A stretch of DNA of 64,000 nt from a bacterium (lineage in GTDB: Bacteria; SZUA-79; Acidulodesulfobacterales; Acidulodesulfobacteraceae): contig JAJZJX010000002.1 in NCBI GenBank assembly GCA_021850985.1, forward strand, positions 14,652 to 78,651. Direction: 5' to 3'. Below the pieces are notes generated by a model. The model was not told the DNA's origin. It did not search any database and saw only the letters and a program-made list of their open reading frames with translations. Every line of letters begins with the position of its first letter. The first letter of the stretch is position 1. Positions 9,909 to 29,150 of the stretch are shown here, in pieces. A program made the translations under genes and the position numbers.

Positions 9909-11792
9909 TTACCTGACGAAATAATAAAAAAGTACTGCGGCTACGCCTATAGAAAGCGTTAAAATATAGCTCATTAGCATACCGTTTTGAATTTTTCTCG
10001 CTTTTACAGAAAAATTTCCGAATGCTCCCGCTATACCGTTAACAGCTCCGTCTATTATCTTAATATCCACCACTTTCCATAGAAAATCGAAAAAAACAAG
10101 CATTGGTTTAACGATTAAAAAATCATATATTTCGTCTATATAAACTTTGTTGTATGAAAGCGCATACACAGGCTTGAATATAGTTTTTATTTTTTCGGGA
10201 TCTACAGCCTTTTTAATATATAATAAATATGCTATATATATTCCGATTAAGCCGGCAGCTACGGAAATAGAGCTAAGAACATACCAAGGCATGCCGTTAA
10301 CTATAGGAGCAAAATTTTTCGCATTTTGAAAATCGACGTTTAAAAAATTGTAAAATACTGAATGATTAAACGGCGGTATTCCAAGAAATCCTATTGTTAA
10401 CGCAAAAAAAGCCATTATAATCATAGGCACCGTCATAATCTTAGGAGATTCATGAACATGCAAGTTTTTGTCCACTTTGGACTCTGCAAAAAAAGCCAAA
10501 AATATCAGCCTGAAAATATAAAAAGCAGTCATTAACGCGGTTATCTCTCCGATAACCCATGCGAAGTAAAAACCCTTATTGTAAACATCCGCTAATATCG
10601 CATCCTTTGAGAAAAAACCTGAGAAAGGCGGTATTCCAGATAATGCAAGACCGCCTACAATAAACGTTATTGCAGTAGTTTTCATTTTTGAATATAATCC
10701 GCCCATTTTCCTTAAATCCAATTCTCCGGAAAGTCCGTGCATCACGCTGCCTGCCGTTAAAAAAAGCAATCCTTTAAAAATAGCGTGTGATATAAGGTGA
10801 AACATGCCTGCGGTATATGAACCTATACCTACCGCCATAAACATATAGCCTAACTGACTGACAGTGGAATATGCTACTATCCTTTTTATATCGTACTGGG
10901 TAAGAGCGATAAATGCCGCAAAAAAAGCTGTGAACGTACCTACTATAAGAACGACCTCCGAAGCTGCAGGCGAATATGAAAACAACACGTGAAATCTTGC
11001 TATCATATATACGCCGGCAGTGACCATAGTAGCGGCATGTATTAATGCGCTGACCGGAGTAGGGCCCTCCATTGCGTCCGGCAGCCATACATGCAGAGGA
11101 AATTGCGCCGATTTTCCAACAGCACCGGCAAATAACAGCAGCGCTATGACAGTTACCGTCAATGTAGGCATTGTTGGAACCATTGCGAATATTTTTTCGT
11201 AATTAAGAGTTTTAGTCGTCATAAATAAAAGGAATATTCCCGTAGCAAAACCAAAATCGCCGACTCTGTTTACTATAAAAGCTTTTTTTCCGGCGTCGGA
11301 AGCAGATTTTTTTTCATACCAGAAACCTATAAGTATGTAAGAGCAAAATCCGACAGCTTCCCAAAATACGTATAGCAAAAGCACATTATTAGACATAACG
11401 AGCATTATCATTGAAAACACGAAAAGGTTTAAAAAAGAAAAATATCTTGAAAACCCCTTATCGTCCTGCATATATCCAATAGAGTATATGTGCACCAGAG
11501 TACTTACGCCGGTTACCATGACGAGCATAATTACTGAAAGCCTGTCGATAACGGCAGAAACTCCGACTTTTAAAGTTCCTGCATGCACCCACGGATAAAG
11601 AGTATCGGTAAAGCCGTGTGAATATGCGACTATAAAAAACAGAATAACGGACAGAATAAATGATATTCCTATAAAAGAGCTGGCTAAATATCCGGATAAC
11701 CCCTTAAAATATCTTCCGAATAAACCCCATAACAGCCATCCGGCAAGCGGAAATAACGGAATGAGCCAAGTAATAGATGTTTTGAAATCCAT
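9909..11792 (-). CDS. nuoL: NADH-quinone oxidoreductase subunit L
   Basis: 627 aa. HVWLPDAMEGPTPVSALIHAATMVTAG; long C-terminal extension consistent with the lateral helix. Confidence 0.9.
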   Translation of the reverse strand: MDFKTSITWLIPLFPLAGWLLWGLFGRYFKGLSGYLASSFIGISFILSVILFFIVAYSHGFTDTLYPWVHAGTLKVGVSAVIDRLSVIMLVMVTGVSTLVHIYSIGYMQDDKGFSRYFSFLNLFVFSMIMLVMSNNVLLLYVFWEAVGFCSYILIGFWYEKKSASDAGKKAFIVNRVGDFGFATGIFLLFMTTKTLNYEKIFAMVPTMPTLTVTVIALLLFAGAVGKSAQFPLHVWLPDAMEGPTPVSALIHAATMVTAGVYMIARFHVLFSYSPAASEVVLIVGTFTAFFAAFIALTQYDIKRIVAYSTVSQLGYMFMAVGIGSYTAGMFHLISHAIFKGLLFLTAGSVMHGLSGELDLRKMGGLYSKMKTTAITFIVGGLALSGIPPFSGFFSKDAILADVYNKGFYFAWVIGEITALMTAFYIFRLIFLAFFAESKVDKNLHVHESPKIMTVPMIIMAFFALTIGFLGIPPFNHSVFYNFLNVDFQNAKNFAPIVNGMPWYVLSSISVAAGLIGIYIAYLLYIKKAVDPEKIKTIFKPVYALSYNKVYIDEIYDFLIVKPMLVFFDFLWKVVDIKIIDGAVNGIAGAFGNFSVKARKIQNGMLMSYILTLSIGVAAVLFYYFVR

Positions 11793-11812
11793 TTTATTTA
11801 CTACCTTTTAAA

Positions 11813-12106
11813 TTAATTTTTTAACTCGTTTGCTTTGTCCATATCCACGGTTCCCTTTTCTCTGTAAAAAGCAACTATAATACCAAGAGCTACCGCGGCT
11901 TCTGCAGCCGCTACTACCATTACGAAAATAACGAATACGTCGCCTGAAATAAGATTTAAACGGTTAGATACCGCCACGAAACCGAGATTTGCAGCATTAA
12001 ACATCAACTCTAAACTCATAAAAACAATTATTAAATTTTTCCGCATAAGAACGCCCAATGCGCCTATACAAAAAATAATTCCGGCCACTATCAAATAATT
12101 ATTCAT
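11813..12106 (-). CDS. nuoK: NADH-quinone oxidoreductase subunit K
   Basis: 97 aa with three TM helices (…FMSLELMFNAANL…AAAEAAVALGI…). Position between nuoJ and nuoL. Confidence 0.87.
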   Translation of the reverse strand: MNNYLIVAGIIFCIGALGVLMRKNLIIVFMSLELMFNAANLGFVAVSNRLNLISGDVFVIFVMVVAAAEAAVALGIIVAFYREKGTVDMDKANELKN

Positions 12107-12135: not shown

Positions 12136-12639
12136 TTAAAGTTTTTTCTTAGCAAATAAATATGCCCCTATAATTGCAACAAAAAGAAGTATAGAAGCAA
12201 TTTCAAAAGACAGAGTATATTTAGTAAATAAAAATTTTCCTATGACCTGCGTATTGCCTATTTTATTTATTACTTCGTGAGTAAATATGCCGGTAGGCTT
12301 TTTAGTCTTTCCGCCTATCGTGTATACAACTATTTCCGCAAACAAAACTGCGGCAATTACTATTCCGATAATTTTCTGATGAAAATCCGTCTTTACCGCA
12401 TTCAGCTTTGAAATATTTAATAACATTATAACCAATACTACAAGAACCATTATCGCTCCTGCATAAACTAATATCTGCATAACGGCAAGAAACTGCATAT
12501 CTAAAAGCACATAGAAACCTGCAAGCGCAAAAAAACAAAGGACTAAATAAAGCGCCGAGGTCAATGGATTTTTCATAGATATAACCATCAGCGCAGAAAA
12601 AATGGCTATAAACGCAAAAATGTAGAAAAGTGCTTCCAC
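12136..12639 (-). CDS. nuoJ: NADH-quinone oxidoreductase subunit J
   Basis: 167-aa membrane ORF between nuoI and nuoK. FLAVMQILVYAGAIMVL is a typical ND6/NuoJ segment. Confidence 0.82.
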   Translation of the reverse strand: MEALFYIFAFIAIFSALMVISMKNPLTSALYLVLCFFALAGFYVLLDMQFLAVMQILVYAGAIMVLVVLVIMLLNISKLNAVKTDFHQKIIGIVIAAVLFAEIVVYTIGGKTKKPTGIFTHEVINKIGNTQVIGKFLFTKYTLSFEIASILLFVAIIGAYLFAKKKL

Positions 12640-12657: not shown

Positions 12658-13173
12658 TTATCTAGATTTAATTAATTTATCTATACCGTAAATGCCTTCA
12701 TCTCTCGTATAAAAAGCAACCTCATAATCCGTTCCTAAACTGATAGCTTCCTCCGGACATATTTCTTCACAGTAGCCGCAGCAGATGCATCTTAATAAAT
12801 CGATTTCAAATGAAGACGGATGCCGTCTTCCGTCGTTATAAATTCCTTTTTTTAAATTATCTAAACTTTTATTATGTTTCTGTCTTTCGGTAAGTTCGTG
12901 TTCCATTCCGTAGTCTACGTAACCTGTTTTTATTTTTATCGCTTCGGACGGGCAGACAGTTTCGCATAAAATACACGCCACGCATCTTAATGAGCCGTCT
13001 CCGTTAACGTTGAGGTGAGGAAAAGCTCTGAATCTTTCGGCTATCCTGAGGCGCTCTTTTGGATACTGAAAAGTTACAGGTTTTTGAAAAAAAGTTCTAA
13101 TGGTCGTTTTAAGACCTATTAAAAAATTTTTAGAAATCTCTAAAATCGACTTTTCTTGTTTATGGGTATTCAT
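12658..13173 (-). CDS. nuoI: NADH-quinone oxidoreductase subunit I (2x[4Fe-4S])
   Basis: Two ferredoxin motifs, CVACILCETVCP and CICCGYCEEICP. The linker between them (about 45 aa) is longer than usual. Confidence 0.9.
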   Translation of the reverse strand: MNTHKQEKSILEISKNFLIGLKTTIRTFFQKPVTFQYPKERLRIAERFRAFPHLNVNGDGSLRCVACILCETVCPSEAIKIKTGYVDYGMEHELTERQKHNKSLDNLKKGIYNDGRRHPSSFEIDLLRCICCGYCEEICPEEAISLGTDYEVAFYTRDEGIYGIDKLIKSR

Positions 13174-13176
13174 TTA

Positions 13177-14163
13177 TTATCCTTTAAGCAAAACCATTAC
13201 AAATCCTGTTACTATTATATTTGCAAGAGCTATCGGAAGCAGAAACTTCCATCCGAAATCCATAAGTTCGTCGTATCTAAGCCTTGGATACGTCCATCTG
13301 AGCCATAAATAAATAAGTATTATAAAAAACACTTTTATCAAAAACCATATGACAGGCGGTAAAAAAGGACCTTGCCAGCCGCCAAGAAACAAAGTCACAA
13401 TTACTGCGCTGTTAACCACCATCTGAGCATATTCGCCGATAAAGTAGAAAGCAAATTCCATACTGGAGTATTCCGTGTGAAAACCTGCAACTATTTCTCC
13501 TTCCGCCTCGCCTATATCAAAAGGAACCCTGTTCATTTCCGCCGTCGAAGCTATTAAATAAAGCAGAAATCCGACAGGTTGATAAACTACAAACCAGATA
13601 TGAGACTGTTCGGAAACTATTTTGGACAAGCTTAGGTCTCCGGCAATCATTATTATGCCTACTATAGAAAGTACGAGGGCAATTTCGTAGCTTATCATTT
13701 GAGCGGCAGTCCTTATTCCGCCTAGAAGGGAATATTTGCTGTTAGACGCCCAACCTCCTATAACTACACCGTAAACGCCGAGCGAAGTCAGCGCAAGAAT
13801 AAAAAGTATCCCGACATTTACGTCCGTTATTTGAAGAGGAACGATATGCCCCATAATTTTTATAGGAGCGCCGAACGGTATTACGGCAAAAGTAGTTAAA
13901 GCCGGTATAACTACTAATATTGGAGCCAAAATAAATAAAAACTTATTAGCCTCGCTCGGTATAATATCTTCTTTAAAAAATAGTTTAATGCCGTCGGCTA
14001 TCGGCTGAAGCAAGCCGTGAAATCCGGCTTCCATCGGTCCCATTCTGTTCTGTATCCTGGCTGCGATTTTGCGTTCCAATAGAGTCAGATAAGCGGCGGA
14101 TAACAGCAGTCCGACAAATACTATTAATATTTTAATAACTTCAGCGATAAGCCAAAAGAGCAT
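13177..14163 (-). CDS. nuoH: NADH-quinone oxidoreductase subunit H
   Basis: 328 aa. LLERKIAARIQNRMGP and AEGEIVAGFHTEYS are hallmark ND1/NuoH motifs. Confidence 0.92.
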   Translation of the reverse strand: MLFWLIAEVIKILIVFVGLLLSAAYLTLLERKIAARIQNRMGPMEAGFHGLLQPIADGIKLFFKEDIIPSEANKFLFILAPILVVIPALTTFAVIPFGAPIKIMGHIVPLQITDVNVGILFILALTSLGVYGVVIGGWASNSKYSLLGGIRTAAQMISYEIALVLSIVGIIMIAGDLSLSKIVSEQSHIWFVVYQPVGFLLYLIASTAEMNRVPFDIGEAEGEIVAGFHTEYSSMEFAFYFIGEYAQMVVNSAVIVTLFLGGWQGPFLPPVIWFLIKVFFIILIYLWLRWTYPRLRYDELMDFGWKFLLPIALANIIVTGFVMVLLKG

Positions 14164-14177: not shown

Positions 14178-16301
14178 TTAATAATATAATTTCGTTCTAT
14201 CGTTATAGTAAAATTTGCTTCTGCCTTTAATTTTATTGTAATATATCACGTTTCCGCTTATAATGGAATTTAAAAAATCTTCGGTTTCGTTTAAGTTATA
14301 CGCATTATTCATTTTTGCCGAAATTTCGGCAAATACGTCCGTTAAATTATATCTGTAAATTCCAAAATTAAATTCGTTATTTACGTTTATGATTTTACCT
14401 TCGAAATTTTCATAATATGTATTTTTTTCCTCCAAAAAATCTTTAATAGGTATAATCACGTCTGCCATAGCAGACAATATACTTGTTTTTGAGGAAAAAA
14501 CCGTTAAGAATTCTAAATTGGAAATATTGCGTATTATTTCTTTTCCGTAATCGTCGTCCTGCAAATCTCCGATATATATAAGATTTTTAATTCTGCCGGT
14601 ATCGAGACCGGTAATTATTTCTTTAAAACTATATGCATTGCCGGAAGGATAAACGCCGGCATGCATCAATCCTCTATAATTCGACGGTTTCAAGAGCGGA
14701 AACAAATACACCGACTTTTCCTGCTTACGCAAAAATTGAATAACTTCTTGCAATATCGCTAATTCATCGTTAATATCTATAGAAGACATGACGGAATCGC
14801 CTATTATAAAAGAAATACAGCCTGCATCCGCAATTACTTCTATAATTGATTTGCATACATCGTCTAAATCGGTTTGTTCTTTATGCAGACTTTTCAGCAT
14901 TTTATTTAAATATGTTTTAAAAAATGATGCATCGATATCTTTCTTTGAACAAGCTATATCTTCAAATCTTGAAAACGATCTAATCCTCTCTGCTTTTCCC
15001 GTTTTTGGATTTACTATAAAAAGCCTTCCTCCGTGTTCCCTGCGCGTCTTTAAAATGTCGTATGCCGCAAACGGTATCTCGTCTTCTATACTGCCGAAAT
15101 ACAGCATAACTTCAGAATTTTTAATATCGTTTATATCGAAATATTCTTCGGAAGTGAATAATTTTTTAAAATTTAATAAATTTTTCCTGTAAAGTTCGGA
15201 AACGGCAATATCAAAATGCGTAAGCTTCAAAGTATTCTTAACAAATTCTAAAGAGGCCTTGCCGCCGTTAATTGAAATATTTGGAGAAATTAAAACCGCC
15301 GTATCGCCTTCAGCATTATTTTCCTGAATACCCTTCATTCTTAAACAAAATTCTTCTACGGCTTTTTCTAAGGTGACTTCTTCGGCAGCCGACTTTTTTT
15401 TAATATAGGGACTATCAATATAATAGCTTTTGCAGTCACCGTTAATTGCCGGATAGAAAAAACCGGACTTGCATAGATATCCTCCGAAAGGAGCAGCCGT
15501 CTTAACCAAAGATTCATCGTGTCCGTATCTGTAATATTCTATTCTGCATGCGGCGGAACATTTATCGCAAATTGACGAAAACGGCATTTCCTGCCAGTAT
15601 CTTTCTTTAAATTTTGAAGGTTTTGAAACTAAAGCGCCCACGGGACATACTTCAATGCAGTTGCCGCAATAATAGCAGTCTAAACGATCCGGTTCGACTG
15701 AAATTTCCTCAAATGAACATCCCTCGGCAGGCTGAGAGCCAAGCTGAGTTTTAGTATCGGTTTTAAGTCCTATATAGCCGTTATTGCCTTTATCTTTCAT
15801 CTGAAGAAAAGGATTTCCGTACATATCGCCGCAAACCCTTATACACCTTGAACACAAAACACATCTTGTAGCAGTATATTCTATTAAATCGCTTTTAAAA
15901 ATTTTTGTCCTATCCGGATAAATTTTTTTGTCCTTTTGAATAGTTATGCCAAATTCAAACGTTAAATCCTGCAAAAGACAGTCTCCGGATTTGTCGCAGA
16001 CGGGACAGTCAAGCGGATGATCCAATAAAAGCTGCGAAATAACCTCTTTTCTTATTTCCCATAATTTTTCGGTTTCGGTATATATTTCATAACCTTCTTT
16101 TATTTTTGCCACACAAGACGCAACAATTTTATTAACGTTTCTGATCTCTACGACACACACTCTGCAGGAACCTATAGGTTTTATTCTTTTAAGATAACAT
16201 AAAACCGGTATCTTAATTCCCGCTTGAGAAGCGGCTTCCAAGATGGTCAACCCGGACTGCGTTATAATTTTTTTTCCGTTAATTGTAATTTCTATATCCA
16301 T
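14178..16301 (-). CDS. nuoG: NADH-quinone oxidoreductase subunit G-like (2Fe-2S plus several 4Fe-4S, diverged molybdopterin-like C-terminal half)
   Basis: N-terminal 2Fe-2S (CYLKRIKPIGSCRVCVVEI); HPLDCPVCDKSGDCLLQD; RCVLCSRCIRVC; CYYCGNCIEVCP; N7-like CDKCSAACRIE...LCKSGFF. The C-terminal roughly 400 aa is recognisable only by position and length. Confidence 0.85.
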   Translation of the reverse strand: MDIEITINGKKIITQSGLTILEAASQAGIKIPVLCYLKRIKPIGSCRVCVVEIRNVNKIVASCVAKIKEGYEIYTETEKLWEIRKEVISQLLLDHPLDCPVCDKSGDCLLQDLTFEFGITIQKDKKIYPDRTKIFKSDLIEYTATRCVLCSRCIRVCGDMYGNPFLQMKDKGNNGYIGLKTDTKTQLGSQPAEGCSFEEISVEPDRLDCYYCGNCIEVCPVGALVSKPSKFKERYWQEMPFSSICDKCSAACRIEYYRYGHDESLVKTAAPFGGYLCKSGFFYPAINGDCKSYYIDSPYIKKKSAAEEVTLEKAVEEFCLRMKGIQENNAEGDTAVLISPNISINGGKASLEFVKNTLKLTHFDIAVSELYRKNLLNFKKLFTSEEYFDINDIKNSEVMLYFGSIEDEIPFAAYDILKTRREHGGRLFIVNPKTGKAERIRSFSRFEDIACSKKDIDASFFKTYLNKMLKSLHKEQTDLDDVCKSIIEVIADAGCISFIIGDSVMSSIDINDELAILQEVIQFLRKQEKSVYLFPLLKPSNYRGLMHAGVYPSGNAYSFKEIITGLDTGRIKNLIYIGDLQDDDYGKEIIRNISNLEFLTVFSSKTSILSAMADVIIPIKDFLEEKNTYYENFEGKIINVNNEFNFGIYRYNLTDVFAEISAKMNNAYNLNETEDFLNSIISGNVIYYNKIKGRSKFYYNDRTKLYY

Positions 16302-16317: not shown

Positions 16318-18249
16318 TTAATCCTCAAACTTGACAAGCATAAGATAATAACATCTCATACATCTTGTAGCTTCGTAAACCGCATCGTCGTTAGTAAAAC
16401 CCTTATCGGCTTCTTCGAAGCTTTTTATGCGTTCTTTAACAGGCTTAATTATCTGTTTGGGCGCAAAATTCCCCGGCGGCATATCTGTATCTTTAATAAC
16501 TTCATTCTTATCATATACGCCGATGGTTTCAAACAGATTTTCAAACATGCAGTCGTCCGTCGGAGTAAAAGTGCCGGTTCTTATATATTGATCTATTCTT
16601 CTAGCAGCATTTTTTCCGTCTCTGTTCGAATCTACTATGCTTATGGGACCAGTTAAAGCATCGCCTCCTGCGAAAACGCCCGGCATATCCGTCATAAAAG
16701 TAAATTTGTCGGCGGATATAGTCTTTCCTTTAATGATTTTTATTTCCGGTACGTCTTTAAGACACTCAAAATCAGGTACCTGTCCTATAGCCATAATAAA
16801 ATCATCGGTTTTTATATCGAAATCCGAATCGGGTATTTCTATAGGACTTCTCCTTCCGCTTGCGTCCTTTTCTCCAAGCTTCATTTTTCTGCATCTTACG
16901 CCTGTAACTCTGCCGTTTTCATAAAGGATAGCAACCGGATTCGTCAAAAATTCGAACTTAACTCCTTCTTCTATTGCCGTTTCAAGTTCGTCGTATGCCG
17001 CCGGCATTTCTTCTTTGCTTCTCCTGTAAACAACGGTAACATCATTATATCCTATCCTCACAGCCGTTCTGCAGCAGTCTATCGCGACATTCCCTCCGCC
17101 TTCTATAATTACTTTTTTGCCTATATCAATTTTTTGTCCGAGATTTACTTTTCTTAAAAATTCGACTCCGTCAAAAAAACCTTTTAAATTATCGTTTTCG
17201 CCGGGCAAATTAATATTCTGCCCTAAATGAGCTCCTATTCCGAGAAATACGGCCTTAAATCCCTGTTCGAAAAGGTCTTTTACAGTAAAATCTTTTCCAA
17301 GCTTACTGTTTAATTTATATTCTATTCCGGTGGAAAGTACATAGCCTATTTCCGCGTCTAAAAAGTGTTTTGGCAGCCTGAATTTAGGAATTCCGACGTT
17401 CATCATTCCGCCCAAAACCGGAAGAGCCTCAAAAATAATAGGCTTATAGCCCATTAATCTTAAATAATATGCACAGCTTAAACCGGCAGGACCGGAACCT
17501 ACTATAGCAACTTTTATATTATTATCTTTTATTTTAAATTCAGGCTTATGATTGGAGTAAAATACTTCGTCTGCGGCAAATCTTCTTAACAGGCATATCT
17601 GAATAGATTCGTCGATATTTGCCCTGCGGCAGTTGTCTTGGCACGGATGAAAACATGTTCTGCCGAGAATTCCGGCAAGCGGGGTATTTCTTCTTGCAGA
17701 CTGCAAAGCGTCTTCGTATCTGCCGTCCCTGACTCTTTCTATCCAGTTAGGTATGTCTAACTTTGAAGGGCATCCGTTAATGCATGGCGCAGTAACGTGG
17801 GCTATGTAATCCCCTCTTTTTATTATTTCTTTATTTTTTATTGCTTTTTCAAAGTCTTCCCTGTAATTATCGATAAGTTCTACTACCGAAGAAGGTCCTA
17901 TAGTTCCCACTGTGCACTTAGACGAAGACATAATCCAGTCGCACAGATTTCTTAACCTGTCTAAATCTTCTATTATGGCTTTTCCGTTACAAATATTCTC
18001 TAAAATTTCCGATGCTACATCGGTTCCATGCGTGCATGGAGTGCACACTCCGCAAGATATTTTCTGTAATTCCTGCATGTAGCATCTTGCCAGGTCAACC
18101 TTATTATCGTTTTCGTCCAATAAGGCAACGCCCGTCCAGTTTAATACAGACGATATTTTTTTATGGCCTGAACGTTCAAAGAAATTAAGGTCTAATCTGT
18201 CAGTTAATTTATCGATGAGTTTCATAATTAATTTATTTTTACCTGTCAA
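16318..18249 (-). CDS. Fusion protein: NuoF C-terminal [4Fe-4S] (N3-type) domain plus GltD/NfnB-like FAD/NAD(P)H oxidoreductase; occupies the nuoE/nuoF slot
   Basis: SCGVCTPCTHG...x39...KCTVG (aa 66-112) matches the NuoF cluster-binding tail. It is followed by APCINGCP and CFHPCQDNC cluster motifs, VAIVGSGPAGLSCAYYL (FAD), VIIEGGGNVAIDC (NAD(P)H) and GVFAGGD. The start is either TTG 18249 (11-nt overlap with nuoD) or ATG 18225. Confidence 0.8.
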   Translation of the reverse strand: MTGKNKLIMKLIDKLTDRLDLNFFERSGHKKISSVLNWTGVALLDENDNKVDLARCYMQELQKISCGVCTPCTHGTDVASEILENICNGKAIIEDLDRLRNLCDWIMSSSKCTVGTIGPSSVVELIDNYREDFEKAIKNKEIIKRGDYIAHVTAPCINGCPSKLDIPNWIERVRDGRYEDALQSARRNTPLAGILGRTCFHPCQDNCRRANIDESIQICLLRRFAADEVFYSNHKPEFKIKDNNIKVAIVGSGPAGLSCAYYLRLMGYKPIIFEALPVLGGMMNVGIPKFRLPKHFLDAEIGYVLSTGIEYKLNSKLGKDFTVKDLFEQGFKAVFLGIGAHLGQNINLPGENDNLKGFFDGVEFLRKVNLGQKIDIGKKVIIEGGGNVAIDCCRTAVRIGYNDVTVVYRRSKEEMPAAYDELETAIEEGVKFEFLTNPVAILYENGRVTGVRCRKMKLGEKDASGRRSPIEIPDSDFDIKTDDFIMAIGQVPDFECLKDVPEIKIIKGKTISADKFTFMTDMPGVFAGGDALTGPISIVDSNRDGKNAARRIDQYIRTGTFTPTDDCMFENLFETIGVYDKNEVIKDTDMPPGNFAPKQIIKPVKERIKSFEEADKGFTNDDAVYEATRCMRCYYLMLVKFED

Positions 18250-19438
18250 CTTCTCCCAATAATATATCGACGCTTCCCATTATCGCAATTAAATCAGCTA
18301 TCATATGTCCTTTAGTCATTTCGTTTAGAGCGCTTATATTGCAAAACGACGGCGGTCTTACTCTCATCCTGTATGGAAAGCCGGAACCGTCGGAAACTAA
18401 ATAAAAACCTAATTCTCCTCTGGGATTTTCTATAGAAACGTACGCTTCGCCTTTTGGAGGTTTAATGCCTTCCATTCCGTATTTAAAATTAAAAATCATC
18501 CCCTCCATAGTAGTTAAAGCTCTTTTCTTAGTCGGCTTAACGTATGCAGGATATTCGTCATGGTTTAAATATTCGCCTTCCGGAATATTTTCTATCGCCT
18601 GCGATATTATCTTTAGGCTCTGACGCATCTCTTCTATCCTTATTACGTACCTGTCGTATGTATCACCGTTGTCGCCTATCGGCACTTCAAAATCGAAATC
18701 TTCGTAACCGGAATAAGGATTTACTTTGCGTACGTCGTATTTAACTCCGCTGCCTCTTAAAGACGGTCCGGTCAGAGCAAAATTTATAGCGCTTTCGGCT
18801 GAAATTATTCCTAAATTTTTTGTTCTTTCGAGCCATATTTTATTTTTAGTTAGAAGCGCTTCGTATTCATTAATCTTTTCGGGAAAAATCTTTATAAAAC
18901 TCCTCGTTTTATCGACAAAATCGTTATGTATATCCATCGCAAGACCGCCTACGCGGAAAAAAGAAGGCGTCATCCTTTGACCTGTAACTGTTTCTATTAT
19001 ATCTAATATTAATTCTCTTTCGCGGAAACAGTATAAAAACTCGGTTAATGCGCCTAAATCTACGGCATGCGTAGCAAGCCAGACAAGATGCGAACTTATT
19101 CTGGTAAATTCGGCTAAAATTACGCGAACGTATTCAGCCCTCTTAGGAGCTTTTACTCCGCAAAGCTTTTCTACAGCCAATATATAGCCGAGGTTGTTTG
19201 ATGCTCCGGCTACGTAATCCATTCTGTCCGTAATAGTTTCAGCCTGATGATAAGTTTTATATTCCGCAAATTTTTCCATACTTGTATGCAGATAGCCGAT
19301 TATAGGCTCTGCATGAACTATAGTTTCTCCGTCTAATTGCACTAAAACCCTGAGAACTCCGTGTGTAGCCGGATGAGAAGGTCCTATGTTCAATACGAAC
19401 TTATCATTTTCTATAAGATAATCTTTCTGAGCAATCAT
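18239..19438 (-). CDS. nuoD: NADH-quinone oxidoreductase subunit D
   Basis: 399 aa. NIGPSHPATHGVLR, GGLAMD, and C-terminal RVRPPSF...LGEVDR are typical of the 49-kDa subunit. Confidence 0.94.
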   Translation of the reverse strand: MIAQKDYLIENDKFVLNIGPSHPATHGVLRVLVQLDGETIVHAEPIIGYLHTSMEKFAEYKTYHQAETITDRMDYVAGASNNLGYILAVEKLCGVKAPKRAEYVRVILAEFTRISSHLVWLATHAVDLGALTEFLYCFRERELILDIIETVTGQRMTPSFFRVGGLAMDIHNDFVDKTRSFIKIFPEKINEYEALLTKNKIWLERTKNLGIISAESAINFALTGPSLRGSGVKYDVRKVNPYSGYEDFDFEVPIGDNGDTYDRYVIRIEEMRQSLKIISQAIENIPEGEYLNHDEYPAYVKPTKKRALTTMEGMIFNFKYGMEGIKPPKGEAYVSIENPRGELGFYLVSDGSGFPYRMRVRPPSFCNISALNEMTKGHMIADLIAIMGSVDILLGEVDR

Positions 19439-19458: not shown

Positions 19459-19977
19459 TTATTTAATTTGGTCCAAATCTACGTAACCGGGTGCATCCAT
19501 TTTAATTTCGTGAGGCTCAGGTCTCTGCCTTAATGGATAATCTTTAAGAAGCGGATGACCGACCCAGTCGTCCGGATTTAAAATTCTTTTTAAATCCGGA
19601 TGGCCTTTAAATTTTAGCCCGAACATATCGTAAACTTCTCTTTCAAACCAGTCTGCGGAATTATAAACGGACGTCAAACTCGGATACTCGGTTTCATCTA
19701 TTTTACTCCATATTTTTACAAAAACTCTGAAATTATTTTTTATAGAATAAAAATTGTATATTACTTCTATCCTTTCCGCTCTTTTAGGGTAATCCACAGC
19801 GAATAAATCCGAAAGCATATCAAACTCTAATCTTGCATCATTTTTTAAAAACAAAGCAAATCTTAGCAAATCTTCTTTTTTAATTCTTATATGAACGTCG
19901 CCGTTAATAACGTCTGAAGCTATGATAGATTGCGGCATAGACTCTTTAATAACGGTTAATGCAAACATTATATCCAT
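19459..19977 (-). CDS. nuoC: NADH-quinone oxidoreductase subunit C
   Basis: 172 aa. [22 protein letters not shown] is the conserved 30-kDa subunit motif. Confidence 0.9.
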
Positions 19978-20030: not shown

Positions 20031-20525
20031 CTATCTGAAAAGTTTAGGCGGCTCTTCATGTTTCAAAGTGCCTTTTTCTATTTTTTCTTGAAGTTTTACT
20101 ATGCCGTAAATAAGAGCTTCCGGACGCGGAGGACATCCGGGTATATAAACATCGACAGGAATGATAGTATCGACTCCCTGAACAATGCTGTAAACATTAA
20201 AAAGCCCTCCCGAACATGCGCAGTCGCCCATAGCAATAACCCATTTCGGATTAGGCATCTGGTCGTAAACTCTTTTAACCATGGGCGCCATTTTATATGA
20301 AACTCTGCCGGATACTATTATAAGGTCGGACTGGCGCGGACTAGACCTGAATATAAGACCGAGTCTGTCGAAGTCGTATCTTGAAGATGCCACCGTCATC
20401 ATCTCGATAGCGCAGCATGCCAACCCGAAAGTTGCCGGCCATATAGACCACTTTCTGCCCCACGAAACAATTTTATCCAATGAAGCGGTAATTATATTAT
20501 CGCCTAGATGCTCTTCTATTCCCAT
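20031..20525 (-). CDS. nuoB: NADH-quinone oxidoreductase subunit B
   Basis: 164 aa. N2 cluster ligands in [18 protein letters not shown] and [10 protein letters not shown]. Confidence 0.95.
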
Positions 20526-20896
20526 TTAAGCGCTCCTTTCAGCCATACGTAAAGCAGACCGATTACCAATATCACTATAAATAAAAACATTTCGACAAAT
20601 CCGAGTATTCCAAGATGCGAAAATATAACCGCCCAAGGAAAAAGAAAAAGAGCTTCGATATCGAAAAGAAGAAAAAATATAGCTATTAGATAAAACTTTA
20701 CGTCAAATTTAACGTGGGGTTCGCCGGTCGGCTCGACGCCGCATTCATATGCCTTTAGCTTGCCTGACTCGTATGTTTTTTTTCCGATAAAATTAGATAT
20801 TAAAATGGTAAAGACCGCAAATATAATCGCTATAACAAGCATTATAAATATGGGCAGAAAAGAAATTAAACCGTTGTTGTTTATACTATTATTCAT
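20516..20896 (-). CDS. nuoA: NADH-quinone oxidoreductase subunit A
   Basis: 126 aa. [40 protein letters not shown] is the ND3/NuoA signature. First gene of the array. Confidence 0.9.
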
Positions 20897-20948: not shown

Positions 20949-20977
20949 ATTATATCATACGATATAATCAAAATCAA
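20949..20977 (-). promoter_or_regulatory. Candidate sigma70 promoter of the nuo operon
   Basis: Minus strand reads TTGATT (20977-20972), a 17-nt spacer, then TGaTATAAT (-10 at 20954-20949, TG at 20957-20956). It lies about 50 nt upstream of the nuoA ATG and overlaps a perfect 11-bp inverted repeat (20946-20971). Sequence-only prediction in AT-rich DNA. Confidence 0.4.
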
Positions 20978-21051: not shown

Positions 21052-22617
21052 TTATAATTTATGCTGATTTAAATAATAAAGTAAAGTCCTGACGCCGACG
21101 CCTGTACCGCCTTTTGGGTTATAATTAAAACCCGTTTTGGTAAAAGCAGGTCCGGCTATATCTATATGGCACCATTTAGCTTTATCCGGAACAAATTCTT
21201 CCAGAAACATTCCTGCCGTAATCGCACCGCCGTATCTGTTGCCTACGTTTTTTAAATCGGCAATCGGACTTGAAAGTTTTTCCTTCATATTATCGTCGAA
21301 AGGAAGTTCCCACATTCTCTCTCCCGTAATTTGACTTACCGATATTATATTGGATATAAGGTCTTTATCGTTTCCCATAACTCCGGAAGTGTATTCCCCA
21401 AGCGCAATTACGCAAGCGCCGGTTAAAGTCGCAAGGTCTATAATTTCGTCAACTCCTAATTCTGACGTGAAGCTTAAAGCGTCAGCCAAAGTCAGTCTGC
21501 CTTCCGCATCGGTATTTTCTATCTCTATAGTCTTTCCGTTTAAAGCTTTAACTATGTCGTCGGGTCTCTGAGCTCCGCCGTCCGGCATATTCTCGCATGC
21601 CGCAATAATGCCATGAACTTCTAAGTCTATATCGAAATCTTTAATATATTTCATAACACCTAACACGGTGCAAGCCCCTGATTTGTCGCTTTTCATAGTT
21701 GTCATAAAATCCGCCGGTTTCAACGAAAGTCCGCCGCTGTCAAAAGTGATGCCTTTCCCGATTAATGCGATTTTTTTGATATTTTTACTCTTCTGCTTAT
21801 TTTTCGGTTTATATGTTAAATGAATAAACCTAGGCGGGTTTTTCGATCCGCGTGCTACGCCGTAAAATGCGTTCATTCCTTTTTTTATTATCTCTTTTTC
21901 GTTAAATATTTCACAGCTTATACCGCTTTCTTCAGATATTTTAGCTGCTAAATCGGCTAAATATTCAGGGGTTACGACGTTACCCGGTTCGTTTACTATA
22001 TCGCGCGCAAAGTTAGCAGCGGAAGCCGTTTGTTTTCCAAAATCAAAACCTTCATCTATCGCTTTTGCATTTTCCTTAGTAACCTTTAAGCCGTTAAAAT
22101 GAATATTAATAACTTCGGGGTATTTTTCGTCTTTGCCTTTTTTTGTCATTGCTTTATTTCCTGAGGCGGCAGACATATATTTTTTAAACTCGTATAATCC
22201 TAATTCTGCTCCCTCCGATATTGCCGCAGCGGAATAAAACATTCCTTTCTTTATATAATATTCGCCGCTTAATTCGGGAATTACGACCGTTATTTCATTA
22301 GATTTGTTTGCCTTGGCGGTTTTAGCCGCCGCCGCGATAAAACTTCTCAAGGAATCGTAATTAAACTTATCTTTTTTGTCTAATCCGTAAACTAATGAAT
22401 ATGCGGGTGATTCTATAAGAACGCTCTTTCCTTTTTTTGCTTTAAAATCTAAACGTTTCAGCCTTTTATAAATAAATTCTAATTTTTTAAAATTTCCCGA
22501 TTTTAAAAAACGGTTTTCTTCTCCTTGAAAAACCCCGAAAACAAAAATATGGTTTAATTCATTTGTTTTATTTTCGGATAAGTTTATTTCTATAGAATCT
22601 ACTAATTTAAATTTCAA
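21052..22617 (-). CDS. pepA: Leucyl (M17) aminopeptidase
   Basis: 521 aa. GKGITFDSGGLSLKP and NTDAEGRLTLADAL are M17 catalytic-site motifs. Confidence 0.94.
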   Translation of the reverse strand: MKFKLVDSIEINLSENKTNELNHIFVFGVFQGEENRFLKSGNFKKLEFIYKRLKRLDFKAKKGKSVLIESPAYSLVYGLDKKDKFNYDSLRSFIAAAAKTAKANKSNEITVVIPELSGEYYIKKGMFYSAAAISEGAELGLYEFKKYMSAASGNKAMTKKGKDEKYPEVINIHFNGLKVTKENAKAIDEGFDFGKQTASAANFARDIVNEPGNVVTPEYLADLAAKISEESGISCEIFNEKEIIKKGMNAFYGVARGSKNPPRFIHLTYKPKNKQKSKNIKKIALIGKGITFDSGGLSLKPADFMTTMKSDKSGACTVLGVMKYIKDFDIDLEVHGIIAACENMPDGGAQRPDDIVKALNGKTIEIENTDAEGRLTLADALSFTSELGVDEIIDLATLTGACVIALGEYTSGVMGNDKDLISNIISVSQITGERMWELPFDDNMKEKLSSPIADLKNVGNRYGGAITAGMFLEEFVPDKAKWCHIDIAGPAFTKTGFNYNPKGGTGVGVRTLLYYLNQHKL

Positions 22618-22638
22618 ATTTTAACCCTCCTGATTTTA

Positions 22639-22681
22639 TTTTATTACGGGGACAGAATTCAATTCTGTCCCCGTAATAAAA
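22639..22681. repeat. Family-A palindrome, long form (21-bp arms)
   Basis: TTTTATTACGGGGACAGAATT-c-AATTCTGTCCCCGTAATAAAA, lying between the acs stop and the pepA RBS (AGGAGGG). Confidence 0.9.
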
Positions 22682-22685
22682 TTGA

Positions 22686-24593
22686 TTAATCATCTTCTAT
22701 CGTAGATAAATCTCCTTCGCTTATACCCATTTCCCTCGCTTTCAAAACTCTCCTCATAATTTTTCCGCTTCTCGTCTTAGGAAGAGAATCGACAAACTCA
22801 ATTTCGTCCGGTTTCGCTATAGGACCAAGCGTTTTACCGACGTTAGCTTTAATATCGTCCATAAGGGCATCGGTTTTATCTATGCCGGGCTTTAACACTA
22901 CGAAAGCCTTTATCGAATTGCCTTTAACGTCGTGGGGTTTGCCTATTACCGCAGACTCGGCAACTGCTTCGTGGGTAATTAAAGCGCTTTCTATCTCGGC
23001 AGTTCCCAGCCTGTATCCCGAAACTTTAATTACGTCGTCTATCCTGCCCATAACGTAAAAATAACCGTCTTCGTCTCTTTTCGCGGTATCTCCCGCAAGA
23101 TATACGCCTTTAAATTTAGAAAAATAAGTTTCTTTATATCTGTTTTCGTCTTTATAAACAGTCCTCATCATGGAAGGCCATGGCTTTTTAATTACAAGAT
23201 AACCGCCTTTGTTAGGCTCTTCCACGCTTTTACCGTTTTCGTCGAAAATATCGGCGTCTATTCCAAGAAACGGTTTTCCGCATGAACCGGGTTTTAACGG
23301 CAGAGAAGGTACGGGCGTTATCAGAAACATACCGGATTCCGTCTGCCACCACGTATCCATAATAGGGCATCTTTCTTTGCCTATATGCTTATAATACCAA
23401 CGCCAGACTTCGGGATTTATGGGTTCGCCGACGCTTCCGATAATTTTAAGGGAGCTTAGATTATGCCTGTTAGGCCAGTTTTCACCGAATCTCATTACGC
23501 CTCTTATAGCCGTAGGGGAAGTATAAAATATATTTACGGCATGTTTTTCGACTATTCTCCACCATCTGTCCGGATAAGGATAATAAGGCGAACCTTCAAC
23601 CATAAGCGTCGTAGCCCCGTTAATCAAAGGTCCATAAATTATATAGGAATGTCCCGTTATCCAGCCCGGGTCTGCGGCGCACCAGTAAGTATCGGTATCG
23701 TTTATGTTAAAAACGTATTTTGAAGTTATATACGTTCCTACGGAATATCCGCCGTGAACATGCAATATGCCTTTAGGTTTTCCTGTAGTTCCCGATGTAT
23801 AAAGTATAAAAAGAGGGTCTTCGGCATCAAGCTCTTCGGTTTTAAGATAAGGGTTAGCTATGGGCAGTTTCATAAGTTCGTCGTAATAAAAATCCCTCGA
23901 AGTATCTATAGAAACTTCTTTACACGTTCTTTTTACTACGATAACGGTTTGAACGACCGGAGCTTTAGTTACCGCTTCGTCGGCTATTTTTTTAAGCTCT
24001 ATAACCTTGCCTCCTCTTAAAGCTCCGTCGGCGGTAATAAGCAGTTTGCTTTGTGCGTCTATTATTCTGTCCTTAAGCGCTAAAGCCGAAAAGCCTGCGT
24101 AAACTACGCTATGGATTGCTCCTATTTTTGCGCATGCAAGCATGCTGATAGCTATTTCCGGTATGTTTGGAAGATAAATAGTAACGGTATCGCCTTTTTT
24201 TATTCCAAAACTTTTTAAGACGTTTGCAAACTTATTTACCTCTTTATATAAAGAGAAATAAGTATAAACCCTTTCAGTACCGTCTTCGCCTTCCCATATT
24301 ATCGCCAGCTTATTTTTCCTAAATGTCGCTATATGTCTGTCTAATGCATTATGAACTATATTAGTCTTGCCTCCCGTAAACCATTTATAAAATGGAGGAT
24401 TTGATTGGTCCAACACTTTATCCCAGTGCCTGAACCACGACAGCTGTTTTGCCGTTTCATCCCAGAATTTTTCGTTTTCTTTTATGGAATATTCGTGTAA
24501 TTTATCGTAATCCTCGACATAACAGTTTTTCAAAATTTCTTTAGACGGCAGAAAGATATCCTTCTCCTGAGACAGACTGTCAAAAGTACTCAT
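22686..24593 (-). CDS. acs: Acetyl-CoA synthetase (AMP-forming)
   Basis: 635 aa. YTSGTTGKPKG AMP-binding motif, YWCAADPGWITGHSY, and C-terminal TRSGKIMRR. Confidence 0.95.
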   Translation of the reverse strand: MSTFDSLSQEKDIFLPSKEILKNCYVEDYDKLHEYSIKENEKFWDETAKQLSWFRHWDKVLDQSNPPFYKWFTGGKTNIVHNALDRHIATFRKNKLAIIWEGEDGTERVYTYFSLYKEVNKFANVLKSFGIKKGDTVTIYLPNIPEIAISMLACAKIGAIHSVVYAGFSALALKDRIIDAQSKLLITADGALRGGKVIELKKIADEAVTKAPVVQTVIVVKRTCKEVSIDTSRDFYYDELMKLPIANPYLKTEELDAEDPLFILYTSGTTGKPKGILHVHGGYSVGTYITSKYVFNINDTDTYWCAADPGWITGHSYIIYGPLINGATTLMVEGSPYYPYPDRWWRIVEKHAVNIFYTSPTAIRGVMRFGENWPNRHNLSSLKIIGSVGEPINPEVWRWYYKHIGKERCPIMDTWWQTESGMFLITPVPSLPLKPGSCGKPFLGIDADIFDENGKSVEEPNKGGYLVIKKPWPSMMRTVYKDENRYKETYFSKFKGVYLAGDTAKRDEDGYFYVMGRIDDVIKVSGYRLGTAEIESALITHEAVAESAVIGKPHDVKGNSIKAFVVLKPGIDKTDALMDDIKANVGKTLGPIAKPDEIEFVDSLPKTRSGKIMRRVLKAREMGISEGDLSTIEDD

Positions 24594-24635
24594 AAAGTAA
24601 ATCCCCCATAAAGTAAATTGATTTTTATTAAATTA

Positions 24636-26423
24636 TTAATATTTAAATTTCTTCAATATGCCGATTAATTTTTCGAGTTCTCCGTAAATAGATTCAGCCT
24701 CCTTTGCCGTATTGGAAGATTTTTCGGAATTAGACACGGAGAGCGTTGAGACCGTCTCGATATTCAGGGAAATCTCGTTGGTAGCCGCAGTCTGCTCTTC
24801 AGAAGCGGCAGCTATAGAACTTATCTGGTCGGTTAAAACAACTATATTTTTTTCAATACTGTCTAAGGATTCTCCGGCTTTTGAAGCATAACCGACGGAT
24901 AAATCTACTTCGCTCAAAGTCTTATCCATAGAAGTTTTTGTATTTTGAGTACTTTGCTGCATCGTCTGAACTTTAGCCGCTATTTCTTTTGTAGCTTTTA
25001 CGGTTCTTTCGGCTAATTTTCTTACCTCGTCGGCGACGACGGCAAATCCTCTTCCCGATTCTCCGGCGCGGGCAGCTTCTATGGCGGCATTAAGGGCAAG
25101 CAGGTTAGTCTGATCGGCTATATCGTTAATAACGGATATTATTTCCCCTATTTCAAACGAACTTTGCTCTAACCCGTTTATTAATCCTCCAAGCTGCTGA
25201 GTAAGCACTGCTACGTTTTTAATGCCGGATATCGACTTTTCCACTATGTCGAAACCGCTTTTTGCGCTGTCCGATGCTTCTTTGGCGATAGAACTTACGT
25301 TCTGCGTATTTTTAGCAATTTCTTTAATTGTCTGCGACATCTCTTCGGAAGCGGCGGCTACATGCGTCGCAAGTTCAGCCTGCTCCTGCGCTTTACCGCT
25401 AATTTCATCGACGTGCCCTTCTATTGTGGTGCTTACGTCGACTATAGTCATAGCTTCTTCCGTAATAGACTTTACTATCTCTCTAATATCTATAATAAAT
25501 TTATTAAATTCGTTAACAACGGCAGTAATTTCGTCATAAACCGAATTTTTGTAAACTTTACATTTTTTACAAATGTGCTCTCCTTTCTCGCCGAATTTTT
25601 CTATCTGTTTATCCCAGCATCTCGGCTCAAGTTCTGATTCGTCCAGCATGCAATGCCTGTGGCGATTTGATATAATTTTCGGTTTATCAAAACAATCCAT
25701 CGGAATCAATTTGCTTAAATCGCCTTCTCCTTTAGATATATCTCTAACCCTGTTATAAAAATTAGTAATCGGTTTTATAAATGTCTGCTTAAGCATTAAA
25801 TACATTAACAATATTGCTATAATTATTAATATAATAGAAAATATAACAACGTTACGCATAAAAATATTTGACGCTTTTACCGCATTTTTAAGAGAATATA
25901 CAAGTTCCACTCCGCCGAGAACCGTTCCTGATTTGACGGTATGGCACATTAGGCAGTCTATGCCCCTTGACATCTTTTTTGCAATAAAAGGAACACCCAC
26001 TTTCAAATATTTCTGTCCGTTTTTTTCATAAACGCTTATTATCTCTTTCTTTGACGAAAGTATTTCTTTATCGAAATTAGTAACAGCCTCCTCCTGCTTT
26101 AAACCTTTTCCGAATTCTTTGTTTACGGAGTTGCCCCTCACTAACTTAAAAGACTTAATCCCCTTGATTTTTCTGTATATGCCGAATAACTGGCGCCTGT
26201 CGGATTTATTAGCAATAGTGCCGTTAAGCATCATGGCGTTTAAACTGGAAAGCATTGTTTTTGCCGTAACCACTGCGTCAAAAGACGTAGTTTTTACCGA
26301 CATCTTATTTTGAAAATATAATGCATAATAAGTAAGCGCAAAAAGCACCACTATTGCAGCAATTATAATCATTGAAATAAGTTTGGTTTTAATAGAAGTC
26401 TTATTAATTATTGATAAATTCAT
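24636..26423 (-). CDS. Methyl-accepting chemotaxis protein with periplasmic CxxCH (heme-c type) sensor domain and Cys-rich insert in the HAMP linker
   Basis: TM1, a periplasmic region of about 155 aa containing DCLMCHT, TM2, HAMP, then the signalling domain ([34 protein letters not shown]). I moved the start to ATG 26423 (MNLSIINK) because AAGGAGGAG lies 9 nt upstream; the track start at 26453 lacks an RBS. Confidence 0.9.
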
Positions 26424-26547
26424 ACAGACACGCTCCTCCTTAGGATATAACAAATTATTTTCAATAAAACCGATATTTTATTATTTTAATCTAATAAAAA
26501 AAAATATGTTACAATTATTTTTTAAAACAATAAATAAACTTAATTAG

Positions 26548-27894: not shown

Positions 27895-27958
27895 CTTTAT
27901 ATGATTTAAAGTACAAATATAAAATTAATTTATTTACTCGGAAAAGGTGAAATTAATA

Positions 27959-29113: not shown

Positions 29114-29150
29114 ATCTATAATATACCATACTTTCACCTTTAAAACATAA

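Follow-up and report, generated by a model that had tools for sequence, protein, structure and literature searches.

A widespread SfrB-type flavoprotein as the probable, putatively NADPH-coupled electron-input module of an Acidulodesulfobacterales complex I whose operon lacks nuoE and nuoF

How does complex I take up electrons if its operon encodes neither NuoE nor NuoF? The question is raised by a nuo operon from a bacterium of the order Acidulodesulfobacterales, located on contig JAJZJX010000002.1 (positions 14,652 to 78,651; this whole stretch of 64,000 nucleotides is called the window below, and all coordinates refer to it). Textbook complex I is specific for reduced nicotinamide adenine dinucleotide (NADH), and the known exceptions use F420H2, ferredoxin or flavodoxin. 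The 13 genes of the operon, all on the (-) strand and spaced by -13 to 55 nt, are ordered nuoA-B-C-D-[flavoprotein]-G-H-I-J-K-L-M-N, and the slot between nuoD and nuoG holds an open reading frame (ORF) for a flavoprotein, which is the subject of this analysis. This protein is probably the electron-input module of a non-canonical complex I, where together with NuoG it would replace the NuoE-NuoF-NuoG N-module and would be coupled to the phosphorylated nucleotide, NADPH. The array and the position of the ORF had been noted in an earlier reading made from the sequence alone (the sequence-only reading), and we identified the neighbouring genes as claimed there.

The ORF, 16318..18249 (-), ends with a stop at 16318 and may start either at TTG 18249, overlapping the nuoD stop by 11 nt, or at ATG 18225, 13 nt past nuoD, which yields 643 or 635 amino acids, respectively. 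Because all 29 close homologues (65-98% identity, 634-650 aa) begin to align at the MKLI encoded at ATG 18225, the 635-aa form (16318..18225 (-)) is the likely product and the TTG start is unlikely. Both starts, as well as all motifs quoted in the sequence-only reading, are present at the places given there. Residue numbers below follow the 635-aa frame, and amino acid ranges of Pfam domains follow the 643-aa frame. The nuoG gene starts 16 nt past the flavoprotein stop, and the spacing of 16 and 13 nt on the two sides of the gene indicates co-transcription with the nuo genes.

According to a scan with Pfam hidden Markov models, the protein combines an N-terminal stub with a GltD-like unit. The stub is NADH_4Fe-4S (PF10589; aa 52-135, E 1.2e-18; score 67 bits, cutoff 23.5), that is, the C-terminal four-helix domain of NuoF carrying the [4Fe-4S] cluster N3 (17845..18096 (-)). 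It is followed by Fer4_20 (PF14691; aa 153-230, E 3e-20; 17560..17793 (-)), predicted to bind two [4Fe-4S] clusters of the GltD/NfnB/dihydropyrimidine dehydrogenase (DPD) type, and by Pyr_redox_2 (PF07992; aa 246-537, E 6e-25; 16639..17514 (-)), where Pfam and Foldseek place a flavin adenine dinucleotide (FAD) fold (GSGPAG, aa 243) and an NAD(P)H fold (GGGNVA, aa 376). The NCBIfam NuoF models (TIGR01959) cover the flavoprotein only over profile positions 302-410 of 410, scoring 56 bits against a cutoff of 559, and the flavin mononucleotide (FMN)/NADH domain (PF01512) was found in it with neither Pfam nor NCBIfam. Compared with protein chains from the PDB, the stub resembles by sequence the C-termini of NuoF, HydB, HoxF, and FdsB. 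All this bears out the earlier description of the protein as the C-terminal N3 module of NuoF only, with a significant NuoF C-terminal match inside aa 30-140, followed by a complete GltD/NfnB-type unit. Likewise, the absence of NuoE and of an FMN/NADH-binding NuoF, stated earlier for the operon, extends to the 64-kb window: domains of NuoE, of the FMN-binding part of NuoF, or of the NfnA/PyrK type were not found in any of its large ORFs, and the NuoF FMN/NADH motif (GGAGFPTGxKW-type) was not found in any of its six frames.

The residues expected to bind the cofactors are strictly conserved. In an alignment of 55 sequences, reaching down to 39% identity to the window protein, the invariant positions include the N3 ligands C58, C61, C64, and C104; the Fer4_20 cysteines C148, C152, C191, C195, and C199; glycines G243, G245, and G248 of the FAD site; G376-G378 and A381 of the second dinucleotide fold; Y400, R401, and R402; and R621, C622, R624, and C625 near the C-terminus. 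The AlphaFold2 (AF2) model built from this alignment has a predicted local distance difference test score (pLDDT) of 92.5 and a predicted TM-score (pTM) of 0.90, and the stub and the GltD unit are predicted in it as one rigid body. The top Foldseek matches of the model are NADPH modules, namely, those of NfnABC (9n5u_A), Nfn-ABC (9bov_A), StnABC (8oh5_C), NfnI, NfnB, GltD, and DPD. In this search, no solved chain spans the stub and the GltD unit together (best query-normalised TM-score, TMq, 0.69), and we know of no structure of an SfrB-type protein, the family to which this flavoprotein is assigned below.

The end of the protein, which the sequence-only reading described as an 80-aa tail ending in CMRC, is present as described, and it turns out to be a displaced piece of the GltD fold and no extra element. 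The Fer4_20 match begins at profile position 29, so that the RCxxC segment found at the N-terminus of GltD folds is lacking there. The C-terminal 50 residues can be aligned with residues 14-42 of NfnB (4ylf_B; FEEV.LGYT.EEA.EAQRCLQC, including C39 and C42) and 15-46 of NfnI (5jca_L), where the segment is N-terminal, and with residues 534-565 of StnC (8oh5_C) and 537-567 of Nfn-ABC (9bov_A), where it is C-terminal. The segment is short and the E-values of these alignments are weak (0.05-1.6); since, however, the four matches agree in register and RCxRC is invariant, aa 597-625 (..FEEADKGFT..EATRCMRC; 16351..16437 (-)) are best explained as the circularly permuted equivalent of NfnB 14-42, which would supply C622 and C625 as cluster ligands, the corresponding C39 and C42 of NfnB being ligands of the distal cluster (PMC7596348). 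The permutation would leave the N-terminus free for the N3 domain. We considered the tail as a new docking element and rejected this idea, since it matches the RCxxC segment at the N-terminus of NfnB and NfnI and its C-terminal equivalent in Stn and NfnABC.

The likely electron donor is suggested by residues Y400-R401-R402 (17020..17028 (-)), which fall, without gaps in the alignment, on Y310-R311-R312 of NfnB from Thermotoga maritima; the same YRR motif stands at this position in NfnI, StnC, and NfnABC. In the T. maritima protein, the phosphate of NADPH is bound by Y310, R311, and R312 (Loffler et al. 2020, PMC7596348). Similarly, DsrL proteins with YRR are NADP(H)-specific, and those without it use NAD(H) (PMC7596348). 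YRR is thus predicted to bind the 2'-phosphate of NADPH, and we regard it as good sequence-level evidence that narrows the donor to this nucleotide. A flavoprotein of the same architecture and position could still use NADH, or both nucleotides, as the specificity is predicted from a motif of three residues only and some GltD-type enzymes, such as DsrL-1, do use NADH (PMC7596348). We consider this improbable, because every NADH-type DsrL lacks YRR, whereas here the motif is invariant in the 55 sequences and lies on the phosphate-binding residues of NADPH-bound relatives, and because the characterised stand-alone members of the SfrB family are NADPH enzymes.

The composition of the protein is far from unique. 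More than 7,900 database proteins match it at E <= 1e-10, a level that the GltD-type unit alone would reach, and the best 120 homologues all combine PF10589, PF14691, and PF07992. The top match, at 98% identity, comes from a metagenome-assembled genome (MAG) of Candidatus Acidulodesulfobacterium. Homologues are named in databases 'FAD-dependent oxidoreductase,' 'formate dehydrogenase beta subunit,' or 'dihydropyrimidine dehydrogenase subunit A,' and many of the best 120 carry the name 'formate dehydrogenase (NADP+) beta subunit'; the top whole-protein NCBIfam model is PRK12771, 'NAD(P)-binding protein' (461.8 bits, aa 129-633). By homology and architecture, the flavoprotein belongs to the widespread SfrB/FdhB family (KEGG K15022) and is no one-off fusion. 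This corrects the part of the sequence-only reading in which a novel fusion had arisen by truncation of the NuoF of this very operon. The combination of a NuoF stub with a GltD unit is an established module, whose usual job is to pass NADPH electrons to a NuoG-like Fe-S chain.

Indeed, Geobacter sulfurreducens SfrB is the NADPH-oxidising subunit of the SfrAB NADPH oxidoreductase, the 76-kDa beta subunit of the NADPH-dependent formate dehydrogenase of Moorella thermoacetica is encoded by sfrB2 (PMC13040438), and an SfrB-like NADPH-oxidising partner (Pcar_2503) has been proposed for the [FeFe]-hydrogenase of Pelobacter (PMC3543383). In these systems, as here, the flavoprotein belongs to the K15022 family and the next gene starts with NuoG-like 2Fe-2S/4Fe-4S domains. 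They differ in the partner, which is a soluble catalytic alpha subunit there (formate dehydrogenase (FDH), SfrA, or hydrogenase) and a non-catalytic NuoG of a membrane-bound complex I here, with the flavoprotein gene inside the nuo operon. The window NuoG does not qualify as an FDH-type catalytic partner with Mo/W-bis-PGD (bis-pyranopterin guanine dinucleotide), and on this sequence-level comparison the flavoprotein should not be called a formate dehydrogenase subunit.

Gene neighbourhoods link the closest relatives of the flavoprotein to complex I. We collected contexts by exact-protein look-ups and by scans of GTDB species genomes and metagenomes, and classified them by tblastn with the window Nuo proteins; the counts are for stub-type proteins about 635-660 aa long and at least 39% identical to that of the window, the window itself excluded, and, coming from a sample of loci, no census, are lower bounds. 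Among the closest relatives listed, 17 of 25 contexts are nuo-linked, in three arrangements. In the first, nuoA-D-[gene]-nuoG-H.., the gene occupies the same slot as in the window (at least 13 loci: L001, L003, L005, L006 from Thermodesulfobacteriota ORM2a, L008 from Syntrophobacterales, L010, L086, L087, and L088 from Syntrophaceae, L092, L095, L123, and L136). In the second, [gene]-nuoG-nuoA-B-C-D-H.., the pair precedes the operon (at least three loci: L089, L171, and L172), and in the third, [gene]-nuoA-B-C-D-I-H-J-K-L, nuoG is missing (at least one locus, L174 from a Clostridia MAG). The remaining loci, at least eight (L007, L009, L011, L090, L091, L096, L097, and L173), are stand-alone, with the gene beside an FDH/SfrA-like alpha gene and without nuo genes.

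Within the order, the gene order nuoABCD-[gene]-G-H..N is identical at 66-75% identity of the flavoprotein, and other Desulfobacterota-type lineages (L005, L006, L008, L010, L086-L088, L092, L095, L123, and L136) have the gene in the same nuoD/nuoG slot, with 39-46% identity; in total, orthologues sit in this slot in at least 12 other lineages. Relatives at 33-38% identity are all outside nuo operons among the matches listed. So, to the question of whether orthologues occur mostly outside nuo operons, which would have spoken against the sequence-only reading, the answer is negative for the closest relatives and positive for the wider paralogous family. In a neighbour-joining tree, the Acidulodesulfobacterales proteins form one long branch and the other loci of the first arrangement fall into one large clade; the nuo linkage predicted from the tree was borne out in all three members of this clade that were tested. 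Order-wide identity is 65-78% for the flavoprotein, compared with 83-89% for NuoD and 54-61% for NuoG.

In almost every context, a NuoG-like or alpha gene follows 0-100 nt after the flavoprotein gene. Judging by this arrangement, the two genes would behave as a two-gene cassette, and the second arrangement, with the unit ahead of nuoA, suggests cassette-like mobility of the input module. Because the fusion gene and nuoG keep together as a pair, which elsewhere also lies upstream of nuoA, recruitment of a cassette is a better account than retention of a stub. The proposal that the electron-input module of this complex I has been swapped is partly supported: comparative genomics favours the swap of the N-module, and the protein would be a recruited SfrB-type NADPH module, not a truncated resident NuoF.

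Two variants of the family merit mention. In the Clostridia locus of the third arrangement (L174:6001-13908, MAG GCA_030445865.1), the stub::GltD gene, whose product is 42% identical to that of the window, immediately precedes nuoA-B-C-D-I-H-J-K-L; NuoG may be encoded at another place, unless the module is able to pass electrons straight to NuoI. Many of the relatives at 33-38% identity are proteins of about 1,010-1,080 aa that have the GltD unit fused to an entire NuoF with its FMN motif GGAGFPTGxK. These are encoded beside FdhA/NuoG-like genes in Chloroflexi, Bacteroidota, Firmicutes, and other MAGs (L015, L022, L024, L025, L032, L052, L069, and L082; match at about 10001-11800 in most of them). 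They make up a clade of their own, and the stub form may descend from them or have given rise to them.

The putative partner, NuoG (707 aa; 14178..16301 (-)), has the ligand sets for N1b (C35/46/49/63), N5 (H95, C99/102/108), and N4, as well as N7-type cysteines C245/248/252, and its N-terminal domains match genuine complex I NuoG best; it also scores on the epsilonproteobacterial NuoG model PRK08493. The molybdopterin domain of NuoG is degenerate: PF00384 scores 20.4 bits, below the cutoff of 24, and the Molydop_binding domain is absent; hence, the pair would have no catalytic site of its own to reduce. The protein carries two CxxCxxCxxxC motifs, at aa 147-157 and 209-219, and the second one (15645-15677 (-)), being complete, implies an extra [4Fe-4S] cluster. 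It is also found in NuoG of Aquifex (7q5y_A) and in FDH and hydrogenase alpha subunits, and mitochondrial and mycobacterial NuoG keep only its last cysteine. We considered the extra motif as a mark of FDH origin, and its presence in Aquifex NuoG makes this inconclusive.

All other core subunits, the 11 proteins NuoA-D and NuoH-N, are encoded with the ligands for N2 and N6a/b. They comprise nuoA (20516-20896 (-)), nuoB (20031-20525 (-); N2 cysteines C37/38/102/131), nuoC (19459-19977 (-)), nuoD (18239-19438 (-)), nuoH (13177-14163 (-)), nuoI (12658-13173 (-); two CxxCxxCxxxC motifs), nuoJ (12136-12639 (-)), nuoK (11813-12106 (-)), nuoL (9909-11792 (-)), nuoM (8294-9853 (-)), and nuoN (6748-8301 (-)). 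NuoD has the complex I signatures HGVLR and GEVDR, the latter at its very end, and no NiFe cysteines of hydrogenases. The cluster and quinone-module signatures of NuoG, NuoI, NuoB, and NuoD are all retained, so the electron path downstream of NuoG is complete. The motifs of NuoI (171 aa; aa 64-74 and 129-139) start 65 residues apart, and its profile matches fall into two stretches, which points to an insertion relative to the typical NuoI.

A different role for the pair would be that of a soluble SfrAB-like NADPH oxidoreductase merely co-transcribed with an 11-subunit complex I that uses another donor, e.g., ferredoxin. Stand-alone pairs of the SfrB family without nearby nuo genes do occur in many genomes (the eight loci of the last group above), and 11-subunit complexes without an N-module are common. 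We nevertheless find this explanation unlikely, as a soluble pair would lack a terminal catalytic site, the window NuoG having no functional molybdopterin domain; complex I canonically uses NuoG as the bridge to NuoI; and at least 14 loci from different lineages have the gene in the interior of the operon, flanked by nuoD and nuoG/nuoH.

If the flavoprotein does feed complex I, the electrons could travel as follows; we infer the docking, the substrate, the path, and its direction. NADPH would bind to the second Rossmann fold, with YRR on its 2'-phosphate, and reduce FAD, from which electrons would pass one at a time to the two GltD-type [4Fe-4S] clusters, one of them completed by the permuted C-terminal RCxRC, and then to the N3-type cluster of the N-terminal NuoF-derived domain. 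In canonical complex I, the C-terminal domain of NuoF abuts the N-terminal domain of NuoG (Sazanov-type structures); retention of just the N3 domain makes sense in view of this contact, and by analogy this domain may sit here on the N-terminal Fe-S domains of NuoG. The NuoG clusters would deliver electrons via N6a/N6b of NuoI and N2 of NuoB to quinone, a transfer coupled to the pumping of protons through NuoH and NuoJ-N. Such an enzyme would be an NADPH:quinone oxidoreductase. Cells keep NADPH more reduced than NADH (PMC7596348), and in the forward mode the enzyme would have more driving force for the reduction of low-potential menaquinone; in the reverse mode it could act as a quinol:NADP+ reductase driven by the proton-motive force (pmf) in an autotroph that uses a reductive tricarboxylic acid (rTCA) cycle and grows on sulfur or iron compounds.

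Comparison with known systems specifies what is unusual here. With the canonical NuoE-NuoF-NuoG N-module this one shares the N3-type cluster domain, the NuoG Fe-S chain, and the slot between nuoD and nuoG; it differs in lacking PF01512 and NuoE with its cluster N1a, in having FAD and two extra [4Fe-4S] clusters, and in an NADPH signature that replaces that for NADH. Weerakoon and Olson reportedly described in 2008 how NuoE and NuoF of the Campylobacter and Helicobacter complex I are replaced by two unrelated small proteins, with flavodoxin as the donor. There, too, NuoE and NuoF are missing, NuoG is kept, and an alternative gene occupies the nuoD-nuoG slot, but the replacements have neither a flavin nor a nucleotide site, unlike the complete NAD(P)H flavoprotein considered here.

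Exchangeable flavoproteins on a conserved membrane and quinone module are also known from FpoF, the F420H2 input device of Fpo, and from mbx-like operons, where a GltD-related flavoprotein stands in place of NuoI (Degli Esposti 2015, PMC4758237). The mbx-like systems share the GltD-type chemistry. The attachment point in these systems is another one (FpoF or the NuoI slot), with no N3 stub and no NuoG. Beside these cases, two loci of our collection (L115:3300-6314 and L117:2652-5672) contain a frame of about 1,004 aa within nuoA-B-C-D-[..]-J-L-M-N, where NuoH, a GltD-like flavoprotein with YRR and without the N3 stub, and NuoI with two CxxCxxCxxxC motifs are fused; on its domain order, this would be a second, independent wiring of a GltD-type NADPH module into a complex-I-like enzyme.

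The best structural and sequence matches to the GltD part are the StnABC and NfnABC enzymes (8oh5, 9bov, 9n5u), which have the same permutation with RCxxC at the C-terminus and demonstrate that a NuoG-like chain adjoining a NuoF-type N3 cluster can receive electrons from an NADPH module of the GltD type. In contrast to the window system, they are soluble, their GltD unit and NuoG-like subunit form one chain, and bifurcation is done by a full NuoF-like subunit that carries FMN. Operons of this type, with a NuoF-like gene followed by a 2Fe-2S::GltD gene, account for loci such as L049, L060, and others, which we had considered as Rosetta-stone proteins of the composition 'stub - NuoG N-terminus - GltD' and rejected since the stub is in another reading frame. 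Given that the closest solved folds are the bifurcating Nfn, Stn, and NfnABC enzymes and that the rTCA cycle and nitrogenase of the organism depend on reduced ferredoxin, the GltD-type FAD might itself be a bifurcating or confurcating, NfnB-like site that sends NADPH electrons both to quinone, via N3 and NuoG, and to ferredoxin. This is a rather remote prospect, as neither an NfnA/PyrK-type nor an FMN-bearing NuoF/HydB-type partner was found in the operon or the window, only a single Fe-S wire leads out of the FAD, and the non-bifurcating GltD, DPD, and SfrB have the same fold. Of the donors considered in the sequence-only reading, NAD(P)H or ferredoxin, NADPH is retained on the basis of YRR, and a partner for a ferredoxin or bifurcating branch is not encoded in the operon or window.

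Other identities of the protein were considered and dismissed. NfnB is rejected on the absence of an NfnA partner (PyrK-like, with FAD and [2Fe-2S]) from the operon and the window. GltD does not fit: the protein scores 189 bits on TIGR01317 (cutoff 448) and 273 bits on TIGR01318 (cutoff 483), and the window has no GltB-type gene. DsrL is rejected since the protein has only the RCxRC tail and no C-terminal CxxCxxCxxxC ferredoxin domain, and its context is nuo, not dsr; the DsrL of this order carries YNK and not YRR (PMC7596348) and hence is a different gene. For the DPD/PreT and AegA/YgfK types, the score stays under the curated cutoff, or the partner or context that defines the type is missing. 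Finally, a decaying remnant or an annotation artefact without function, which a weak ribosome-binding site might suggest, is hardly credible given the intact frame, the invariance of all 11 cluster cysteines and the FAD and NADPH motifs, the 65-78% identity throughout the order, and the high-confidence fold prediction.

Several points weigh against the assignment of the flavoprotein as an NADPH-coupled input module of complex I. The YRR rule comes from relatives, NfnB and DsrL, that belong to another clade, and the docking of the stub to NuoG is proposed by analogy. The Clostridia locus, in which nuoG is not present, indicates that NuoG may not be the only docking partner. The PRK12771 score lies below the model cutoff of 516 bits, which would make the protein a member of a divergent subgroup of SfrB/FdhB-type beta subunits. 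Published annotations are no firm support either. In the paper describing this order as facultatively anaerobic rTCA autotrophs of acid mine drainage with sulfate-reducing and sulfur-oxidising potential, nuoE, nuoF, and nuoG are reported missing in four MAGs (Tan et al. 2019, PMC6776010); the absence of nuoEF is a KEGG annotation of MAGs from a pipeline that also missed the plainly present nuoG, and is soft evidence. For ORM2a, one of several source organisms available as stable enrichments (in its case a benzene culture), the genome paper implies that nuoE and nuoF were called somewhere in the genome (PMC13101534).

The same paper calls nuoG 'missing' in ORM2a, and its Table S5 puts OS130_12465 (K15022, 32 spectra) and the adjacent OS130_12470 (K05299, 59 spectra) under the formate dehydrogenase step of the Wood-Ljungdahl pathway (PMC13101534). 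These two genes are very probably the pair of locus L006 (CP113000.1), because OS130_12465 is the only K15022 entry among those listed, the adjacent gene is NuoG-like, and the genome position matches. If so, the homologous module is expressed, as both proteins were detected by proteomics, and the K15022/K05299 labels on these probable homologues look like a systematic mis-annotation. In the literature searched, no SfrB- or GltD-like gene located between nuoD and nuoG is described as part of complex I.

Current pipelines call such operons 'nuo lacking E, F, G' (Tan et al. 2019) or 'missing nuoG' (the ORM2a paper) and label the gene pair as NADP-formate dehydrogenase FdhAB (K15022/K05299). This labelling inflates Wood-Ljungdahl pathway calls and hides a respiratory sink or source of NADPH in Desulfobacterota-type anaerobes, syntrophs, and acid-mine autotrophs. 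A complex I wired to NADPH via a borrowed FAD/Fe-S flavoprotein would add an input type and show the N-module as an exchangeable cassette. The case for generalising is evenly balanced: there may or may not be a widespread, so far unrecognised class of NADPH-specific proton-pumping complex I, in which an SfrB-like N-module (with NuoG or without it) is plugged in as a cassette that soluble FDH, hydrogenases, and Sfr enzymes also use and that is attached to the nuo core in at least three arrangements and two phyla. If it exists, anaerobes would gain about 90 mV of driving force for menaquinone reduction, or autotrophs a pmf-driven route from quinol to NADPH.

As for the surroundings of the operon, the sole large gap of the array is the 155-nt space upstream of nuoA, which holds a promoter-like site identified by consensus match only (TTGATT-17-TATAAT with an extended -10 TG; 20949..20977 (-)). 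Further upstream, the block 21052-29398 (-) encodes a peptidase M17, an acetyl-CoA synthetase, a methyl-accepting chemotaxis protein (MCP), a sigma-54 response regulator, and a PAS histidine kinase. In other members of the order (L001 and L003), synteny of this block with the nuo operon is largely kept, the MCP gene being absent in L003, and the sigma-54 two-component pair might regulate the nuo region. At the opposite end, a GHMP-kinase gene (5867-6760 (-)) overlaps nuoN by 13 nt.

The rest of the window, with an overall GC content of about 0.36, is housekeeping, e.g., lipid A synthesis, BamA, Rho, and ribosomal proteins. It includes prfB, encoding release factor 2 (RF-2; 58758-59900 (-)), which is split near 59796: the upstream frame ends GGAGGGTG CTT TGA A, and the rest of the protein is encoded in the +1 frame. 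With its Shine-Dalgarno-like GGAGGG, the site is a classic case of programmed +1 frameshifting, a known phenomenon.

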